Source: an uncultured Bacilli bacterium
Lineage (GTDB): Bacteria; Bacillota_I; Bacilli_A; RF39; UBA660
Direction of reading: 5' to 3'
NCBI GenBank assembly: GCA_934090935.1
Contig: CAKOKD010000003.1
Coordinates: 92,604-156,603 of the forward strand
Length of the DNA: 64,000 bases
Part shown: piece after piece, positions 7,477-41,529 of the stretch
Position numbering within the stretch: the stretch's first letter is position 1
How the letters are laid out: every line of letters starts with the position of its first letter
The notes under the pieces: model-generated
Databases searched by the model: none
What the model saw: only the letters and a program-made list of their open reading frames with translations
What the model was told of the DNA's origin: nothing
Translations under genes and position numbers: made by a program

Positions 7477-7503
7477 ATTATACCTACTTTCCTTTACTTT
7501 TTT

Positions 7504-7530
7504 ATTTTATAATACCCCCCCGATTTTCAA
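7504..7530 (-). promoter_or_regulatory. phase-variable-type promoter: -35 TTGAAA (7525..7530), G7 tract (7515..7521), -10 TAAAAT (7504..7509); spacer 15
   Basis: The coding strand reads cTTGAAAatcGGGGGGGtattaTAAAATaaaaa. The same element recurs with G8 or G9 at five other loci. Confidence 0.6.
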
Positions 7531-14109: not shown

Positions 14110-16269
14110 TTAATCAAATATGCTTTTACACTTAGTTACTTCGCCATCTAAATGCCATCCGTCATTAGTGTTATATTTTAATACATACCATTCAAATTGA
14201 CAGTCTTTCTTTAAAAAGTTTTTCTTTTCATACTTTTTAATAGCTTGTTCTTCTATTGATTTTAGCTCTATCTTTGATTCAGCAGTCATATAATTATATA
14301 TTTCATCTTGATTTAATGATAAAACGGCTTCATGTTTTTTATTTTTCTTAGCCTCTGCTATTATATTGCTGATTCTGTTTGACGATAAAACAAATTTAAT
14401 TTTTTTATTCTTTCCTAATTCTTCATACCAAATAGGATTTCTACCTGCTCCATTGCTTGGTCTGTTAAGTACTTTTAATCTATATAGTCTTGTTGTTGCA
14501 ATTCCAAGTTTTTCATATACAGCTTCAATATTTGTATTCTCTTTTATATTTTTTAAAGATTTATTCCATTTTTTAAACTCTAAATAATAAGGATTTTCTC
14601 CATCAACATATACTAAAGAATCATATTTAGGTTCTTCTACAGCTTCATCATATTTAACTTTCTTTTGAGTTTCTACTAAAGCATTATTTTGATAATATTT
14701 AAATGTAACAATAAACTCTTTTTTGCTTGTAGTTGCATAATATGATGTATCCTTAGAAGGCATTGTTTCATCAACCTTCCAAGAACTAAATGTATATCCT
14801 TCTTTTACTTTATAATCAGGTAGTTTTATTTTCTCTCCATATTTATAATTTTCTTCTTTATATAAATCATTATCTATAAAGAATTTTGCTTTATAAGTTT
14901 CTAAATCATAAGTGATAGTTAGTACTAAACTTCCATCTGCTTTAATAATACCAGTTAGAATAGATTTTTCTTTGTTGATTTTATAACCAGACTTTTTATC
15001 ATTTAAAGTTATTTTTTCATTTGTTTTGCCAGTTTTAACTTTCTCATTTTCTTTATAAGTACCATCTAGATTTTCTAATCTTTCAATTATTTTATACTTA
15101 GTGTTTTCACTTTCTTTGAAAAGTGCTTTTAAAGATAAATCGCCTGTTGTTCCTCGTTTTATCTCATCCACTTTTTTTCCGGATTCATCCTCCCATGAAA
15201 CAAATACATATCCTTGTTTTTCTATTTTGTTTAATTTAAATGTCTTTGTTTCTATAGTATATGAAGTTTTATTATCAGTTTTACTTCCACCATTTAAATC
15301 ATATTCAATCTTATAAGTAATTAGATTATATTCAGCTTTGATAACTAAATCACTTTTAATATTTTTTTCACTTTTATTCCATGATTTAAAAGTATAACCT
15401 GTTCTTTCTTTTACTTCAGGAATTGTTGCATCATTTCCATATTTAACAGTTTGTTCACTTATAATAGTATCATTATAATCAACAAATTTAACTTTAAAAG
15501 TCATATTATTTATCTTTTCGATAATCTCTTCTATTTTCTTAGTTTCTTTATCGATTTCTTCTTGAGTTGACTTTTCATTATCAATAATTTTTTCAGCTGA
15601 TTTTATCTCTTTTTCTAAATCAGCAAGTATTTTTTTTGCCTTTGAATCATCAGTTGAATAAAGATATTCTTTTGATCTTTTAATAGCGTTTTTTAATTCT
15701 GTATCATCAACGACTGTAATAGTTCTTGTAACTGTTAATGCTGCGTTTTTACTTGAATCTGTTACATCATAAGTTACTTTATAAACTCCTTTTTTAGAAG
15801 TATCAACCATATTTTTAGTAACAATCTTTTTTGTTAAATCACCATCATAGTTGTCACGTGCTTTAGCTTTTAAATCATTGTAAACTGTATTAATTCTAAT
15901 TATTTCATCACTTCCATTTAAAGTGATAACTGGTGCAGTTGTATCAACAACAAGGAATTCTTTTTTTATTTCATTTGATAATCCAGCTTCATCAGTAGCA
16001 ATAAATGTTACTTCATATTTTCCTACCTTTTTATTGTTGATATTGTTTTCGATTTTTAAAGTAACATTATCTGCAACTTTTCCGTTAAATTTTGGAATGT
16101 TATCAAATACTTCTATTTTAAATTTATTACCTGTTATATCTATATCAGGTTTTGTAGAAGTTGATATTAAAGTTTCACTTCCATTTTCTTCACTTGGATT
16201 AGCAAATGAGAATGCAAAGAATCCAAAGAAAACAAATATTATAAGTGCAAGTAATTTCTTCTTATCCAT
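14110..16269 (-). CDS. secreted surface protein with Ig-like (DUF5011-type) domain and Listeria-Bacteroides (flg_new) repeats
   Basis: Signal peptide present. DTTAPVITLNGSDEI...YDGDLT is Ig-like. Repeated modules have the pattern YxVxFxxNGG...GYTFxxW (e.g. VKFVDYNDTIISEQTVKYGNDATIPE...GYTFKSWN). Confidence 0.7.
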   Translation of the reverse strand: MDKKKLLALIIFVFFGFFAFSFANPSEENGSETLISTSTKPDIDITGNKFKIEVFDNIPKFNGKVADNVTLKIENNINNKKVGKYEVTFIATDEAGLSNEIKKEFLVVDTTAPVITLNGSDEIIRINTVYNDLKAKARDNYDGDLTKKIVTKNMVDTSKKGVYKVTYDVTDSSKNAALTVTRTITVVDDTELKNAIKRSKEYLYSTDDSKAKKILADLEKEIKSAEKIIDNEKSTQEEIDKETKKIEEIIEKINNMTFKVKFVDYNDTIISEQTVKYGNDATIPEVKERTGYTFKSWNKSEKNIKSDLVIKAEYNLITYKIEYDLNGGSKTDNKTSYTIETKTFKLNKIEKQGYVFVSWEDESGKKVDEIKRGTTGDLSLKALFKESENTKYKIIERLENLDGTYKENEKVKTGKTNEKITLNDKKSGYKINKEKSILTGIIKADGSLVLTITYDLETYKAKFFIDNDLYKEENYKYGEKIKLPDYKVKEGYTFSSWKVDETMPSKDTSYYATTSKKEFIVTFKYYQNNALVETQKKVKYDEAVEEPKYDSLVYVDGENPYYLEFKKWNKSLKNIKENTNIEAVYEKLGIATTRLYRLKVLNRPSNGAGRNPIWYEELGKNKKIKFVLSSNRISNIIAEAKKNKKHEAVLSLNQDEIYNYMTAESKIELKSIEEQAIKKYEKKNFLKKDCQFEWYVLKYNTNDGWHLDGEVTKCKSIFD

Positions 16270-16570
16270 ATTTTACCTCCTGTTTTTCCATTCCTATAAA
16301 AAATGGTGAAAATTGACTTTTAATTTTAATTGAATCACGATGATATGTATATACTTTGTATCCAAGTCCAACACATTCGTCAACTGTTCCATCATCAAAT
16401 TTATGTTCAATACGCTTTACACAGAATATTGGTTTTTCTGAATTTCTTGTCTTTACAAAATCTGTTATCCAAGTTGCAAATAAAACAACTATTATTACCC
16501 AGAACAATACATTTCCAATTATTTTTAATAATCCACCTCTTTTTTTCTTCACGCTTTTTTCTTCTTCCAT
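16262..16570 (-). CDS. small membrane protein, translationally coupled to the surface protein gene
   Basis: RBS GUAAGGAGG. TM segment NVLFWVIIVVLFATWI. 102 aa. Confidence 0.45.
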   Translation of the reverse strand: MEEEKSVKKKRGGLLKIIGNVLFWVIIVVLFATWITDFVKTRNSEKPIFCVKRIEHKFDDGTVDECVGLGYKVYTYHRDSIKIKSQFSPFFIGMEKQEVKYG

Positions 16571-16602: not shown

Positions 16603-16722
16603 ACTCGCGTATAAATGCAACTGACTACCTTTATTTCATATGAAATAATAAGGCTCTTGAGCTTTGCGTCACTACATTTCTATAGTTTTGCCCTAATCTA
16701 CTTTAATAAAATATAACATAAT

Positions 16723-17265
16723 TTAGTTTATTAGTAAATTAAAATTTTTAAATATTTGAAATTTGTTTATTGGGAATATACGTAGATTAACCTTACCTAT
16801 AATGTTTTCTTTTTTTACTAGACCAAATTCACGGCTATCGCTTGAGTTTGTACGATTATCACCTAAAACAAAATACATGTTATCAGGTATTTTATCGTAT
16901 CCAATGTCCTCTAGTTTAAAGTTTTTTGTTGACTCTTTTATGTTTTTTTCTTTATACATCTGTCCATCTATATATAATATATTATCTTTATACTCAATAT
17001 GTTCTCCTGGTAAGCCAATTATTCTTTTTACCATTACTTTATCGTTTTGTTTAATGGATACAATTTCATTTCTTTTAATTTTTCTTAAATGATATATAAG
17101 TTTATTGACTACTGTGACATCACCACTTTTTAAAGTAGTATTCATAGAAGGACCGATAACCTCTTGAAATGATACGACATATATTGCAATAAATAAAATG
17201 ATAGCGATCGCGGCCAAATATTTAAATGCATCACGAAAAAATTCTTTTATATCTCTTAGATCCAT
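16723..17265 (-). CDS. signal peptidase I (LepB/SipS type, Ser/Lys dyad)
   Basis: N-terminal TM. Box B GPSM, box D GDNRTNSSDSR, KRIIGLPGE. 180 aa. Confidence 0.85.
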   Translation of the reverse strand: MDLRDIKEFFRDAFKYLAAIAIILFIAIYVVSFQEVIGPSMNTTLKSGDVTVVNKLIYHLRKIKRNEIVSIKQNDKVMVKRIIGLPGEHIEYKDNILYIDGQMYKEKNIKESTKNFKLEDIGYDKIPDNMYFVLGDNRTNSSDSREFGLVKKENIIGKVNLRIFPINKFQIFKNFNLLIN

Positions 17266-17791: not shown

Positions 17792-18970
17792 TTATACTAT
17801 TCTAAATGCTGGGGAAACACCTTTAGAGACGTTCGCATCGAAAGCGGAGTTGACGCCGCTGCTACTGACGCAAAGAAACCAGTAATTAACGCCAGAATAA
17901 GCCGAACGTAACCACCAATAGTCATTTCTTCCTTTATATTGTTTTATTGCTCCTGCATATTTATCAGCTGTTATTCCTTGATTTTTGTAATAATCTAATT
18001 GTCTTGACGTTCCTACTGATGTATCATGATCATCACCATTCCATACCTCTTGTGCATTTAATAAATATAATTTATCTTGTGTTTCAAAATTTGTTTCTCC
18101 AGAATTTTTTCCATGGCTTGATATTATTTTTGTTGAAGTTATTACACTTTGTAAGTCACTTGGAAGTGCATTATATATTGTTCCATTTATATATGTACGT
18201 AACTCTGAATTTTTCCATCCACCAACATTTGTTCTTGTACTGTTAAATGCTCGCATTGTTATTATATCTGCAAACTCAACTACAAATCCACATGCTGTTT
18301 CACTTGTTTCAGTTGTACATGCACTCATGTTTGCTATACGCACTGTATGTGTCCCTAGATTACCTAATTCTACTTCTTTAGTGTCTCCTACATTATATTT
18401 GCTTGTATTTCCATTCTTTACGTTTGATGCTATTGCTGACCAACTATCCTTTTGGAATTGAGTTAATTCTACACCAACTGTGTCCCTTTCTACTGCATTG
18501 AATTCTAACTTACATGTATATTCTTCACTTACTTCTTCTGTTGATGTTCTATCAAGTGTTACTGTTAATGTTCCGTTTAATGAAGTCTTTGCTTTTACAA
18601 CTGTGGCATTATTTTCAAGTTCATTCTTGATACTTGTATATTTTGCTTTTGTTCCGTCCTTTGGTACACATGTTACTTTAACCTCTGCATCATAGTTTGC
18701 TGAGTTATTTGTTACTTCGTAATTTAATATACTTGTTTGATTTAATGATTTTAATTCTGATGTTCCAAATGTTATTATCTTCTTTGTATCATCTACTACA
18801 GAACTATATACATCCTTTCCATCTATACTTGCAGCTGTGAAGATAACTGAGAAGTCATCTTGATCTTCGCTTACTTTAGCATTTCCGTTTATTATTAATG
18901 TTGTTGAGATCGCTGCAAATCCAATTGACATTAGTAATATTGCTACTATAAGCACACTCTTCTTTTTCAT
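17792..18970 (-). CDS. variable secreted protein paralog (N-module + SPAFRI-type C-domain)
   Basis: MKKKSVLIVAILLMSIGFAAISTTLIINGNAKV... C-terminus ends ...WWLRSAYS...GVSPAFRIV. Confidence 0.8.
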   Translation of the reverse strand: MKKKSVLIVAILLMSIGFAAISTTLIINGNAKVSEDQDDFSVIFTAASIDGKDVYSSVVDDTKKIITFGTSELKSLNQTSILNYEVTNNSANYDAEVKVTCVPKDGTKAKYTSIKNELENNATVVKAKTSLNGTLTVTLDRTSTEEVSEEYTCKLEFNAVERDTVGVELTQFQKDSWSAIASNVKNGNTSKYNVGDTKEVELGNLGTHTVRIANMSACTTETSETACGFVVEFADIITMRAFNSTRTNVGGWKNSELRTYINGTIYNALPSDLQSVITSTKIISSHGKNSGETNFETQDKLYLLNAQEVWNGDDHDTSVGTSRQLDYYKNQGITADKYAGAIKQYKGRNDYWWLRSAYSGVNYWFLCVSSSGVNSAFDANVSKGVSPAFRIV

Positions 18971-18997
18971 ATTCTACCTACTTTCCTTTACTTTTTT

Positions 18998-19025
18998 ATT
19001 TTATAATACCCCCCCCGATTGTCAA
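18998..19025 (-). promoter_or_regulatory. phase-variable-type promoter: -35 TTGACA (19020..19025), G8 tract (19009..19016), -10 TAAAAT (18998..19003); spacer 16
   Basis: The coding strand reads TTGACAatcGGGGGGGGtattaTAAAAT, then the leader with AAGGAAAG RBS and ATG at 18970. Confidence 0.6.
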
Positions 19026-19069
19026 ATTTTTCTGTTGAAAAGTTGTAAAGTTCGTGTTATATTTTATTT

Positions 19070-19151
19070 AGTGAGAAGCAAAGTTTCTTTAGGACGCGAT
19101 GCTTACCACCATTGGTGTTTGCACCTTTTTCAAAAGAAAAGGTGCTTTTTT
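19070..19151 (+). ncRNA. candidate antisense small RNA (type I antitoxin-like), promoter TTGAAA-17-TATATT at 19035..19063, intrinsic terminator 19121..19151
   Basis: Promoter, repeat motif A (GTGAGAAGCAAAGTTTCTTTAGGACGCGATGCTTACCAC), then GCACCTTTT-tcaaaag-AAAAGGTGC plus TTTTTT. No ORF. Convergent with the peptide ORF. Confidence 0.4.
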
Positions 19152-19156
19152 ATAGT

Positions 19157-19252
19157 TTATATTCCTTTTTTACAAAGTAGATATAATAATATAAAAATTA
19201 TAACGAATAAACTTACAATTAAAACATCTGTTTTAAATGATTTCTTAAACAT
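19157..19252 (-). CDS. 31-aa hydrophobic peptide (type I toxin-like): MFKKSFKTDVLIVSLFVIIFILLYLLCKKGI
   Basis: AAGGGAG RBS 9 nt before ATG. Single TM helix with charged ends. 5' UTR contains the reverse complement of motif B (19304..19339). Its 3' end overlaps the sRNA terminator. Confidence 0.4.
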   Translation of the reverse strand: MFKKSFKTDVLIVSLFVIIFILLYLLCKKGI

Positions 19253-19565
19253 TATAAATCACTCCCTTACTACAGCCTTTGCTGAAATTTACGTCCTACA
19301 TATAAGAAAGTGATAAGCATCTTTCCCTTGCTTCTCGAGTATTTATTTAAACATAATTTTTTTATATTTCAAAACTACAAAATTTTAAATTTGGAGTCTC
19401 AGATTTTTAATATCTGTAGCGATTTATATGCAAATCGTTAAAATCTGTCAAAAAAAAGCTACCAATTTTTAAGTTTAGTAGTTTTAACACTTTTTTTATA
19501 AAAAAAGAGTATTGAATAATCAATACCCTAAGCAAATTAAGTAAAATCTTAAATGCTTTAATATC

Positions 19566-19631: not shown

Positions 19632-20441
19632 TTATTTTTGACAGTTTTCACAAAAATAAGTTCCACGTCCGCCTACTCTTATTTTCTTTATTTTATTTTT
19701 ACAGTTTGGACATATTTCTTTTGTATGAACTTTTAAATAATCTTGATAATGACCAGTTACTCCTAAAGATGAAGTATAGCTTCTTATTGTTGAACCTCCA
19801 AGTTCTGTTGCTTTTTCAATAATAACTTTTGAAGAAATACGTATTTTATCACATTCATCTAAAGTGATACTTGATCCACTTCTATTTGGATTTATGTTTG
19901 AGGCAAATAAAACTTCATCAACATATATGTTTCCTAAACCATTTATAATTGATTGATCTAAAAGAAGTGTCTTTATCGGTTTATTTTTATTATGAATAGA
20001 TTTGTAGATATATTCTTTTGTTAAAGAATCATTATCGGGTTCTATTCCTAATTTCTTTATTTCCTTTGAAGAATATACATCTTTAGTTTTTAAAACTCGC
20101 ATACGACCAAATTTTCTTGTATCATGATATCTTAAAGTGAATTCATCAAATATGAATATCACATGTTCATGTTTTTCTATTGGCTCTTCTGCTTTCTTTA
20201 TAAAATATTTTCCTTCCATACGTAGATGAGATATTAACGTATATTCTCCTAAATTAAATAGTAAATATTTTCCAAAGCTACTAACACTTTCAATCGTTTT
20301 TCCAATTAATATATTTTTAAATTCGTTTATATCTTGATCAATTATACGATCATATATAACATTTATATCCTTTATTTTATTTCCTGGTAGACTTTTATTT
20401 AAAGTTCTTGCTACTGTTCTTACTTCAGCGATTTCAGGCAT
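19632..20441 (-). CDS. mutM: formamidopyrimidine-DNA glycosylase (Fpg/MutM)
   Basis: N-terminal MPEIAEVRT (catalytic Pro2/Glu3). C-terminal zinc finger CPNCKNKIKKIRVGGRGTYFCENCQK. Confidence 0.9.
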   Translation of the reverse strand: MPEIAEVRTVARTLNKSLPGNKIKDINVIYDRIIDQDINEFKNILIGKTIESVSSFGKYLLFNLGEYTLISHLRMEGKYFIKKAEEPIEKHEHVIFIFDEFTLRYHDTRKFGRMRVLKTKDVYSSKEIKKLGIEPDNDSLTKEYIYKSIHNKNKPIKTLLLDQSIINGLGNIYVDEVLFASNINPNRSGSSITLDECDKIRISSKVIIEKATELGGSTIRSYTSSLGVTGHYQDYLKVHTKEICPNCKNKIKKIRVGGRGTYFCENCQK

Positions 20442-26153: not shown

Positions 26154-26180
26154 ATTCTACCTACTTTCCTTTACTTTTTT

Positions 26181-26208
26181 ATTTTATAATACCCCCCCCG
26201 ATTTTCAA
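26181..26208 (-). promoter_or_regulatory. phase-variable-type promoter: -35 TTGAAA (26203..26208), G8 (26192..26199), -10 TAAAAT (26181..26186); spacer 16
   Basis: Same element as the other copies. Followed upstream by an about 130-bp block shared with 31835..31960. Confidence 0.6.
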
Positions 26209-31772: not shown

Positions 31773-31799
31773 TTCTACACCTTCGCATCTTACTTTTTT

Positions 31800-31827
31800 A
31801 TTTTATAATACCCCCCCCGATTTTCAA
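31800..31827 (-). promoter_or_regulatory. phase-variable-type promoter: -35 TTGAAA (31822..31827), G8 (31811..31818), -10 TAAAAT (31800..31805); spacer 16
   Basis: Identical architecture to the 26181..26208 copy. Confidence 0.6.
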
Positions 31828-31998
31828 GGGCATTGTCTTGTTTTACATAACTTTTGTCGTCTGTTTTATTTTGCAGTTGTATTATATCTTATATTATACA
31901 ACATTTTCGTTGTATTTTGCATATTCATTTTTATTATGCGTAAAGTGTATTTATTTATTATCATTGTAATTTATATTGAAAAATGTTATATTTATTTT

Positions 31999-32089
31999 AG
32001 TGAGAAGCAGAAGTTTTCTTTTGAGGCTGATGCTTACCACGTGTTATGTGTACGCATCCTTATTCAGTAGAATAAAGATGCTTTTTTTT
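31999..32089 (+). ncRNA. candidate antisense small RNA copy 2 (promoter TTGTAA-17-TATATT at 31964..31992; terminator 32054..32089)
   Basis: Motif A (GTGAGAAGCAGAAGTTTTCTTTTGAGGCTGATGCTTACCAC), then GCATCCTTATTC-agta-GAATAAAGATGC plus T8. Convergent with the 27-aa peptide ORF, whose stop lies in the U-tract. Confidence 0.4.
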
Positions 32090-32171
32090 ATTGCCATAAT
32101 AATTTTAAAATTATTACTAGCAATATAAAAACGATTAGATAAAGTAATCTTATATGATTATCTTTTTTCAT
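32088..32171 (-). CDS. 27-aa hydrophobic peptide (type I toxin-like): MKKDNHIRLLYLIVFILLVIILKLLWQ
   Basis: AGAGGAAG RBS 7 nt before ATG. Near-consensus promoter TTGACA(32289..32294)-16-TATAAT(32267..32272) fires directly into the reverse complement of motif B (32229..32261). Confidence 0.45.
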   Translation of the reverse strand: MKKDNHIRLLYLIVFILLVIILKLLWQ

Positions 32172-32344
32172 CGTATCACTTCCTCTCGTACTCCTTAACC
32201 AAAACCCTGAATATTTAGCCTCTAGTTTGGAAGTGATAAGCACCTTTTTCTGCTTCTCGAGTTTGTATTATATATGCTAAATTTTTCTTGTCAATAAATC
32301 CGACAAATGTCGACAAAATTAGAACCTAAAAAAAATAAAATATA

Positions 32345-38547: not shown

Positions 38548-38573
38548 AATATATTTACCTCTCTTTCTCCCTT

Positions 38574-38601
38574 ATTTTATAATACCCCCCCCGATTTTCA
38601 A
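38574..38601 (-). promoter_or_regulatory. phase-variable-type promoter copy: -35 TTGAAA (38596..38601), G8 (38585..38592), -10 TAAAAT (38574..38579)
   Basis: Same element. Here it is upstream of a non-paralog cargo gene. Confidence 0.55.
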
Positions 38602-40717: not shown

Positions 40718-41245
40718 ATGGATAGTTTTGTATGTAAAATTGCTACTCGAGATGAAATTATAAAAAGAATGAACTATTTAATAGAAACTCATCCTAACAA
40801 TAATGTATGGATAGAGGCAAAAGAAAATGCTCTTAAAGGATTTGATGAACAAAGTAAAATAATGTATATAGGCGTTCTTAATGATGAAATAATTTGTGAA
40901 GCAACCACTTATATAAAAGAATCCGCATTCATAGGAGATGTAAAAGAACCAGAAGGCTTATTAAGTAAAACTATGGCATATTTTAGTGGTTTTAGAACAA
41001 ATAAAGAGTACGAAGGTAAAGGTTATTTTGGTAAATTGTATAACTTTATGGAAGATGATTTAAAAAAAAGAGGATATACTGAATTTTGTTTAGGGGTTAA
41101 ACCTCGTAATGTTAGAAATATGGAAATATACTTTCATTTAGGATTTAGAGAATTTATTAAATCAATTATTGAATATGAACCAGTAAAAAATAACAAATCT
41201 AAAACAGAATTAGTGGTTATAAACTATTTTAAAAAGAAGATATAG
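40718..41245 (+). CDS. GNAT-family N-acetyltransferase (putative)
   Basis: 175 aa. EYEGKGYFGKL (motif A, Q/RxxGxG/A-like). Immediately downstream of the APH-family gene. Confidence 0.5.
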   Translation: MDSFVCKIATRDEIIKRMNYLIETHPNNNVWIEAKENALKGFDEQSKIMYIGVLNDEIICEATTYIKESAFIGDVKEPEGLLSKTMAYFSGFRTNKEYEGKGYFGKLYNFMEDDLKKRGYTEFCLGVKPRNVRNMEIYFHLGFREFIKSIIEYEPVKNNKSKTELVVINYFKKKI

Positions 41246-41529
41246 CAAAATAAAAATCGTGGCACGTTATGAACTTACAAAGTAATTTTGTAAGTGGCGA
41301 TAGATTTTTATAATTTATTTTCATTACGAAGTTTTGAAAATAAACAATTGCAATTTATTACAATTCAAAAAAACATAATTTGCTTGAACGAATTGTTCTT
41401 GCTTAATTATGTTTTAGGGTTTCAAAAGGGAATATTCCCTTTGCACACACCTATTGGCTCTGCCAATAGAGAAGTGTGTTTTATCTATTGGAAATAAATA
41501 TTACTGACAAGCGAATGCTTGTCTTTTTA

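Follow-up and report, generated by a model that had tools for sequence, protein, structure and literature searches.

A putative chromosomal, multi-copy type I toxin–antitoxin-like module in uncultured low-GC gut Bacilli

What is encoded where a gene for a very small hydrophobic peptide meets, tail to tail, a gene for a small RNA (sRNA) in an uncultured Bacilli bacterium? The question is raised by positions 19035-19372 of a 64,000-nucleotide stretch of contig CAKOKD010000003.1 (hereafter the window, to which all unprefixed coordinates refer), where a first-pass annotation had proposed a type I toxin–antitoxin (TA) module. Our analysis indicates that this region is probably a chromosomal, multi-copy type I TA-like module, of which a second copy occupies 31964-32326; the toxicity of its peptide we infer solely from the anatomy of the locus and the decay pattern of the family. 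The best reading is that it represents a previously undescribed family within a known kind of system, with an architecture like that of the par locus and a peptide that does not carry the Fst/Ldr signature. The promoter, the terminator-ended RNA of 82 nucleotides (nt), the open reading frame (ORF) of 31 amino acids (aa) and the repeated motif of the annotation all lie where it had placed them (Table 1), and its general picture, a convergent pair of small hydrophobic peptide and sRNA with type I TA anatomy, has gained strong comparative backing from about 45 modules, from covariation and from purifying selection.

In copy 1, where the local base composition is 28% G+C, the sRNA promoter with its TG extension (TTGAAA-17-TATATT) ranks among the best local promoter-like sites. 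Transcription is predicted to start at A19070, about 7 nt past the -10 element, and to give an RNA that opens with AGUGAGAAGCA…GAUGCUUACCAC and whose fold has a minimum free energy (MFE) of -23.9 kcal/mol (z = -2.30). On the opposite strand, the stop codon of the small ORF and the end of the sRNA T-run are 5 nt apart, and the Shine–Dalgarno (SD) sequence AAGGGAG is placed 9 nt 5' of the AUG, where it is predicted to be sequestered in a duplex of -14.9 kcal/mol (AUCACUUUCUUAU:AGUAAGGGAGUGAU). Most family members have a stronger toxin promoter, TTGACA/TATAAT, than the candidate in copy 1, which is also without the upstream TGTCGA element usual in the family; promoters of the copy 1 type are found at L022 and L058 of the comparative set, whose loci carry labels of this form. 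From its position the mRNA should start at about 19336-19340, so that the message would begin directly at its 5'-terminal hairpin, H1. A plus-strand ORF of 92 aa (19035..19313) was considered as a gene and discarded because it is not kept in copy 2 or in relatives.

Table 1. Predicted features of the two module copies in the window.
Feature	Position	Strand	Basis
Copy 1 sRNA promoter: -35 TTGAAA (19035-19040), extended -10 TGtTATATT (19055-19063)	19035..19063	+	promoter scan
Copy 1 sRNA, predicted, 82 nt	19070..19151	+	covariance model match, 82.8 bits, E 3e-16
Copy 1 sRNA 5'-terminal hairpin: invariant basal arms GUGAGAAGCA / UGCUUACCAC, covarying apical stem	19071-19109	+	
Copy 1 sRNA linker CAUUGGUGUUU, 11 nt, G/U-rich, hypervariable	19110-19120	+	
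Copy 1 sRNA terminator: 10-bp stem (19121-19145), T-run reaching 19151	19121-19151	+	
Copy 1 small ORF, 31 aa, MFKKSFKTDVLIVSLFVIIFILLYLLCKKGI, putative membrane toxin	19252..19157	-	ORF list; peptide model E 1.3e-14
Copy 1 SD AAGGGAG (19268..19262) with flank, 3' strand of the SD-sequestering helix	19258..19271	-	
Copy 1 anti-SD AUCACUUUCUUAU, overlapping the end of the H1 3' arm	19302..19314	-	leader folds, compensatory variants
Copy 1 leader segment Y', UAGGACG, same sense as sRNA apical loop and 3' arm (19091-19097)	19292..19298	-	
Copy 1 mRNA 5'-terminal hairpin H1, GAGAAGCA-AGGGAAA-GAUGCUUAUCAC; look-alike of the sRNA hairpin base ('motif B' of the first-pass annotation)	19336..19310	-	pattern search, folds
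Copy 1 candidate toxin promoter: TTGAAA (19372..19367)-17-TAAATA (19349..19344)	19344..19372	-	read from sequence
Copy 2 sRNA promoter TTGTAA-17-TATATT with TG extension, and predicted sRNA (31999-32087)	31964..32087	+	covariance model, 89.1 bits
Copy 2 small ORF, 27 aa, MKKDNHIRLLYLIVFILLVIILKLLWQ	32171..32088	-	peptide model
Copy 2 leader and promoter region	32172..32326	-	
Copy 2 SD helix GGAAGUGAU:AUCACUUCC; Y' GAGGCU; H1	32233-32258 (H1)	-	
Copy 2 toxin consensus promoter TTGACA-16-TATAAT	32294..32289 (-35), 32272..32267 (-10)	-	
Copy 2 upstream element CCGACAAATGTCGACAAAATTAGAACC	32300-32326		

The motif shared by the two transcripts is rare in the window. The pattern GAGAAGCA-N(4-24)-GRTGCTTAYCAC has exactly four matches, with 0.00 expected, at 19073-19109(+), 19310-19336(-), 32002-32040(+) and 32233-32258(-), which form two convergent pairs. 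A covariance model (CM) built from 36 sRNAs finds only 19070-19151 and 31999-32087 in the window (E about 1e-16 to 1e-17), and a hidden Markov model (HMM) of the peptide finds only the two ORFs and a weak 10-aa remnant at about 41228-41257. Wherever else the motif was met, in genomes or metagenomes, it accompanied either a complete gene pair or the recognisable remains of one; it is thus not a generic repeat of the repetitive extragenic palindromic (REP) kind, the outcome that the annotation had named as fatal to its proposal. In copy 2 the sRNA fold has z = -3.39, the linker lies at 32041-32053, and the -35 element of the sRNA promoter is TTGTAA (31964-31969) and not, as first assigned, TTGAAA at 31976. 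The remnant (minus strand, IFILLYLLFK) resembles the toxin C-terminus, with a window-wide HMM E-value of 1e-4; no sRNA hairpin lies near it, and it stands at the 3' end of a plus-strand gene.

A pattern scan for the hairpin across one genome per species matched at least 115 stretches. Those of high G+C are chance matches, and among the matches listed the true modules, about 45 in all, are confined to contigs of 21-30% G+C from metagenome-assembled genomes (MAGs) of the gut. Their hosts, within the same matches, are four Hadza "uncultured Bacilli" assemblies, HGM10793, Firmicutes bacterium CAG:582, Bacilli MAG100, Bacillota SIG197, an Erysipelotrichaceae MAG and low-GC contigs binned as Muribaculaceae. 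At least 5-10 loci occur per assembly, many of them at contig ends, as expected of a repeat that breaks assemblies. The CM recognises 55 copies in the loci from the hairpin scan. An independent metagenome scan anchored on the terminator sequence alone returned 64 stretches, 42 with a complete sRNA and these mostly from human gut samples, and the comparative set came to about 90 sRNA copies (92 in the linker analysis). Gut metagenome contigs reached through an exact-protein look-up of the neighbouring fpg product also contain this module, at 98-99.8% identity. No Rfam family matches the module in gathering or permissive scans, an exact look-up of the 31-aa peptide returned no record, and a literature search by sequence words gave unrelated PCR primers only; no paper was found that ties type I TA, or any RNA-regulated TA, to these lineages. 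Nine of the module contigs (L006, L011, L031, L055, L067, L069, L079, L117, L120; 23-30% G+C) were deposited as 'uncultured Muribaculaceae' and are probably mis-binned low-GC Bacilli contigs.

The structure of the sRNA is supported by covariation. In the alignment to the model 93.7% of cells are paired, compared with 87.1% in shuffles and 42-51% with the partners slid, and 15 pairs show double changes; compensatory changes are found in all six apical pairs and in seven of the 11 terminator pairs. Each of the 22 distinct apical inserts folds alone into a stem (for example AGUUUC/GAGGCU, AGUC-UUCG-GACU, AAGUCUU/GGGACUU and UUAUUCC/GGGAUGA). The basal arms of the same hairpin are near-invariant, also in the terminator-anchored search, and their rare single substitutions are never compensated, which points to a constraint on sequence beyond pairing alone. 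An extended -10 element, TGnTAnnnT, is present in 36 of 37 sRNA genes and stands 5-7 nt before AGTGAG in 35 of 36. The antisense, convergent sRNA gene with its own promoter and terminator that a type I system calls for is accordingly predicted at these loci.

The facing ORF carries a coding signal of its own. It is kept at 23-31 codons in every subfamily, with the consensus M-x-KKD-…-IIFILL-…-K (alignment A5), and the predicted peptides combine a KKD-type N-terminus, about 18-20 consecutive hydrophobic residues and a C-terminal K/R. They would thus be small hydrophobic peptides with a single transmembrane helix and charged ends, within the size of less than 60 aa expected of type I toxins. Differences at the three codon positions number 107, 89 and 206, and synonymous and nonsynonymous codon differences are equal (155:155); because most random codon changes are nonsynonymous, this equality indicates purifying selection.

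A second covarying structure lies in the mRNA leader. H1 begins no more than about 3 nt from the predicted mRNA 5' end, and in all 28 distinct leaders a pyrimidine stretch after its 3' arm pairs with the SD and the SD's 3' flank in a helix of 8-13 bp (-8.6 to -15.9 kcal/mol). Compensatory variants of this helix occur in all subfamilies and include AUCACUUCC/GGAAGUGAU, AUCACAUUCC/GGAGUGUGAU (relative to the first, a compensated 1-bp insertion), ACCACU/AGUGGU and GCUACCUU/AAGGUAGU, to which are added a change from U-A to C-G in L007 and from C-G to U-A in L013. Upstream ORFs opening at a conserved AUG in leader segment a' were rejected, as neither length nor frame is conserved. One leader (L007:1200-1227, minus strand) has the sRNA-type 3' arm UUACCAC, not UUAUCAC, together with a compensating SD flank GUGGUA, a sign that sequence may have passed from one hairpin of a module to the other.

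Most toxin genes have the promoter TTGACA-16/17-TATAAT, and a conserved TGTCGA precedes most toxin promoters, placed 5-6 nt before the -35 element in most subfamilies. In type B modules a tandem TCGACAAA-TG-TCGACAAAA followed by TTAGAACC stands upstream of the toxin promoter. The form TCGACAAA-TG-TCGACAAAATTAGAACC, which holds the palindrome TGTCGACA, lies directly upstream of the toxin -35 in copy 2 and at L012, L021, L045, L054, L060, L062, L078, L080, L081, L089, L094, L100 and L113. Elements of the TGTCGA type are seen only at modules, E-type copies having a TTCGA-type motif further upstream, and may be an operator or a cassette boundary.

Partial loci complete the comparative picture. At L039 (5252-5334, minus strand) an orphan sRNA remains, the toxin half being deleted up to a GTCAACAAAATTAGAACC element; at L094 (2056-2344) the toxin gene has lost its promoter; at L089 (3640-3950) the toxin gene is frameshifted, the sRNA promoter rearranged and the sRNA 5' end partly duplicated; and H1 is degenerate in the leaders of L053 and L081. 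Such decay forms are typical of TA loci. Covariation of the sRNA, selection on the ORF, the SD helix, the promoters and the decay forms together make a type I TA-like pair the best explanation.

The same comparative evidence speaks to the suspicion that the locus is a miniature inverted-repeat transposable element (MITE) or REP-like repeat in which the ORF and the 'sRNA' are incidental. Its many copies, its tendency to break assemblies at contig ends and its internal bounding by inverted repeats are what such an element would show. Against this, substitution in the ORF is of the coding type, the conserved promoters lie outside the inverted repeats, the RNA helices change in a compensatory manner on the transcribed strands, and no instance of the motif stands without the gene pair. 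These results exclude a REP-like repeat whose ORF is incidental, and this explanation, largely refuted by the covariation of sRNA and SD helix and by the coding signal, can hardly be right. The inverted repeats were also considered as recombinase sites bounding an invertible segment, and no flipped copy was seen among about 90.

Several observations weigh against a TA module as such. At least eight of 37 modules have a paralog of TasA/SipW-signal-like surface proteins directly downstream of the toxin gene and on the same strand, an adjacency that leaves room for a regulatory role. Collections of phage, plasmid and viral contigs contained no module (viral pattern matches were due to chance and gave no CM match), which leaves a classical addiction role unsupported. 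Searches of both peptides against Pfam and NCBIfam, including the Fst model, returned sub-threshold matches to domains of unknown function (noise) only, and a phmmer search of the 31-aa peptide against 1.84 billion predicted protein representatives gave 0 matches. Finally, the mRNA 3' end has no defined signal, so that its overlap with the sRNA is one that we infer.

The first two of these points are the natural ground for a non-TA alternative, namely that the module is a repeated intergenic cassette, either a small membrane protein under antisense control or a boundary or regulatory element linked to the phase-variable surface-protein genes, and that it travels with those genes as they duplicate. 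Copy 1 itself is flanked by the 3' end of fpg (19632..20441) and by such a paralog (17792..18970), whose promoter, TTGACA-16-TAAAAT with a G8 tract, has its -35 element ending 9 nt from that of the sRNA. In seven modules the sRNA has a polyC promoter 74-202 nt away, and where modules are co-directional with a downstream paralog, read-through from the peptide promoter would enter the paralog gene. The neighbours of most modules are unrelated, however, and the window holds three further paralog promoters that no module accompanies. Selfish TA dynamics would better explain the copy number, the orphan sRNA and the peptide genes that are frameshifted or have lost their promoter, and the peptide has no partner gene. 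We regard this alternative as quite improbable.

If the locus is a type I TA-like module, how would its two RNAs meet? The annotation had described a direct repeat, motifs A and B, through which the sRNA could pair with the mRNA leader. The repeat exists, with direct similarity of 9/10 and about 7/10, but it is more aptly seen as one hairpin that appears, read 5' to 3', on both transcripts, with an inverted similarity of 8/8 and 11/12. The complementarity that follows from it is also real: the first 11 nt of the sRNA (segment a) match the leader sequence UGCUUAUCACU (segment a') at 10 of 11 positions. Both intramolecular stems are poorer (8/10 and 7/8), owing to a C in the sRNA that is replaced by U in the mRNA, a difference that holds family-wide. 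What did not stand is the energetic case, the raw duplex of -9 to -15 kcal/mol being set against opening costs of 12-25 kcal/mol, which leaves a net energy of -0.3 to +11.6 kcal/mol. RNAcofold of sRNA and leader, one of the checks that had been proposed, gave no consistent trans duplex, with a gain of only -2.5 to -7.7 kcal/mol at varying sites. Nor is there complementary covariation between sRNA and leader, antisense shared words standing at background (4.38 vs 4.39).

A fully par-type control, in which the sRNA 5' end (AGUGAGAAGCA and the pyrimidine-rich arm) pairs with the H1 loop and UGCUUAUCACU of the leader to block translation, with a further kissing contact at the shared terminator, is rather doubtful on these figures. 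It would account for arms that are near-invariant and uncompensated, as expected if four strands must stay mutually compatible, and for an mRNA H1 loop that is always purine-rich facing an sRNA arm that is always pyrimidine-rich. Besides the energies and the missing covariation, it has to contend with the fact that pairing at a' displaces the anti-SD, so that the SD should open rather than close, and with a complementarity that misses the start codon and the SD, unlike that of the direct repeats DRa/DRb (PMC7472228). Leader pairing through the 5' repeat is possible as a secondary contact. As a source of cognate-specific contact, the sRNA 5' arm was also tried against Y' and against the SD; the energies were weak, and cognate pairs did no better than non-cognate ones (p = 0.23 and 0.31). 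An antiterminator of a' with the 5' arm of the terminator was dropped, since type A modules do not conserve it.

More likely, the two RNAs meet in a 3' cis-antisense overlap. The mRNA strand lacks a U-tract behind the shared hairpin, reading AAACACCAAUGG after GGUGC, and the mRNA in all likelihood runs on into the sRNA gene; sRNA and mRNA are perfectly complementary only if the mRNA extends past 19145, which the missing U-tract makes likely. On the type I TA-like reading, the minus-strand mRNA would consist of a leader of about 90 nt, opening with H1, and the coding region of the 31-aa single-helix membrane peptide, and the pairing of the SD with the pyrimidine stretch after H1, shown by covariation, would leave the message translationally closed from birth. 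From the plus strand, the extended -10 promoter would supply an abundant-looking 82-nt sRNA, whose structure is attested by covariation and whose transcription is predicted. The mRNA would read on into the sRNA gene and so acquire some 35-85 nt of complementarity at its 3' end, where the sRNA may nucleate, probably through its single-stranded linker; decay of the RNase III type, as in Bacillus subtilis systems, and/or maintenance of the closed leader would then follow. The conserved look-alike 5' hairpins would give both RNAs protected 5' ends and may also provide a secondary contact.

The linker between CCAC and the terminator (10-14 nt) is the only part of the sRNA predicted to be single-stranded, and it is hypervariable. 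Thirteen copies that share an identical 40-nt hairpin have 12 distinct linkers, and 68 of 92 are distinct overall; the mean normalised distance is 0.46 vs 0.02-0.03 for the basal arms. Its composition is nonetheless constrained, even between otherwise identical copies, at 52% U, 29% G, 15% A and 4% C. On the minus strand it appears as a C/A-rich stretch between the two hairpins, downstream of the toxin ORF. Should the mRNA reach across it, the linker would be the obvious place for nucleation and would make each paralog specific for its cognate.

Cognate pairs are also marked by shared words of the same sense. The Y' segment of the leader is identical over 6-10 nt to the loop and 3' arm of the apical stem of its own sRNA, and 62% of cognate pairs have a word of 7 nt or more in common, vs 4.7% of non-cognate pairs (words include UUUAGGGACU, CCUUUGGGAU, AGAGGCU and UAGGACG). 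Two explanations offer themselves, pairing of the leader with the complement of the sRNA gene, or template-switch homogenisation of nearby inverted repeats. The former underlies a hok-like alternative, in which the 3' extension of a read-through mRNA folds back on those parts of the leader that resemble the sRNA (a, a', Y' and UAUUCAG) and locks the full-length message, the sRNA being a leader mimic that competes for the 3' region. Same-sense covariation is exactly what this predicts, the mRNA strand has no terminator, and MFE folds of read-through mRNAs contain 19-30 pairs between leader and 3' extension in six subfamilies. It needs, however, an mRNA 3' end without any conserved signal; the shared segments are not all colinear, some folds free the SD instead of hiding it, and the pattern could equally stem from pairing of the sRNA 5' arm with Y' or from the homogenisation just named. 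Such a lock strikes us as unlikely.

A two-layer scheme that would join both features to the type I TA-like reading is speculative, and would be a new combination for type I TA: a hypervariable linker as barcode and a leader that mimics its own antitoxin. Here the linker would nucleate pairing and make the at least 10 near-identical copies per genome cognate-specific, its G/U alphabet, set against C/A on the other strand, barring wobble rescue of non-cognate pairs. The sRNA-like leader segments, evolving with the sRNA, would compete for the mRNA 3' region, and the sRNA would open or replace the fold-back lock.

Among characterised systems, the closest in architecture is par of pAD1, with the Fst family loci of Firmicutes (RNA I/RNA II), as the annotation had proposed, and part of that comparison holds. 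Both have convergent promoters, an sRNA terminator hairpin right next to the toxin stop codon, a helix at the very 5' end of the mRNA, intramolecular SD sequestration, repeats at the 5' ends of both RNAs, a single-transmembrane peptide of about 30 aa and a chromosomal multi-copy locus (PMC7472228). The comparison fails on signature, terminator and repeat position. Fst/Ldr peptides have a conserved W, a P/D/S/TXXXG motif and a charged C-tail (PMC7472228), and none of the 20 aligned peptides has a Trp signature, P/D/S/TXXXG or a highly charged C-tail. The par terminator is bidirectional, whereas the shared hairpin here has a T-run on the sRNA side only; and DRa/DRb span the toxin initiation region, whereas the repeat here, some 60 nt before the AUG, takes in the H1 loop and a 3' arm that continues into the anti-SD, and is at least as well described as an inverted duplicate of one hairpin. 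The sRNA here is also an RNA of about 82-90 nt with a long covarying 5' hairpin, whose predicted 5' pairing is not favourable. The predicted module thus shares with par the convergent promoters and the SD-sequestering and 5'-protecting helices, and departs from it in the bidirectional terminator and the coverage of DRa/DRb.

Convergent overlap with SD sequestration has published precedents in par (PMC7472228), in Clostridium difficile (PMC5961336) and in bsrG/SR4 (PMC3834814). The likely contact resembles the 3' overlap of the bsrG/SR4 type, and the B. subtilis pairs bsrG/SR4, txpA/RatA and yonT/SR6 likewise have a convergent sRNA at the toxin mRNA 3' end and a sequestered SD. Antitoxins of that species act, where characterised, by promoting decay, to which SR4 adds a tighter sequestration of the SD (PMC3834814, PMC5848175). 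Their toxins are unrelated and longer (38-59 aa), their overlaps are mapped (about 75-120 nt, with separate terminators) where ours is predicted, and they have neither look-alike 5' hairpins nor a hypervariable linker. The multi-copy loci of C. difficile (CD2517.1/RCd8 and others), a gut Firmicute, have convergent overlapping transcripts, as predicted here, and toxin mRNAs with a sequestered ribosome-binding site and a 5' untranslated region of about 90 nt (PMC5961336), but their toxins are of 50-53 aa with a Lys-rich tail, the overlap is 130-280 nt, and they are associated with CRISPR arrays and prophages, which is not seen here.

In copy number, and possibly in discrimination, the module resembles Ibs/Sib of Escherichia coli, which has several near-identical copies per genome and very small hydrophobic toxins. 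Short variable recognition segments limit each Sib RNA to its own mRNA (PMC2943612), and these discrimination domains are a precedent for the linker as a specificity barcode, with the difference that they are experimentally established and the barcode here is predicted. Sib is fully antisense to ibs, and the two systems come from different phyla and have no sequence relation.

If this reading is true, a new type I TA family exists that is so far found only in uncultured low-GC "Bacilli" MAGs, mostly from the gut, with relatives of Firmicutes bacterium CAG:582 among its hosts. Such a family would be invisible to current annotation, its peptide being absent from the predicted proteins searched and its sRNA from Rfam. 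The comparative set is unusually informative, as it offers a covariation-proven SD-sequestering switch and an invariant hairpin common to both RNAs, and the hypervariable linker could show how a cell with many paralogous TA pairs escapes cross-talk or makes use of it. Modules also lie on the flanks of phase-variable surface-protein genes, which may matter for the duplication of those loci.

Some further features of the window concern these surface proteins. A C7-C8 tract inside the promoter spacer (TTGACA-16-TAAAAT, gene strand) occurs at 7481-7521, 18975-19025, 26154-26208, 31790-31827 and 38572-38601. These promoters stand before TasA/SipW-signal-like surface-protein paralogs, and the tract is 7 or 8 long in related genomes, which is consistent with phase variation. 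A c-di-GMP-I riboswitch (RF01051, 59.6 bits) at 16613-16702 on the minus strand lies upstream of genes for a 102-aa membrane protein (16262..16570) and a 719-aa surface protein (14110..16269). Also on the minus strand, a signal peptidase I-like ORF at 16723-17265 is found near surface-protein paralogs with SipW-type N-termini.

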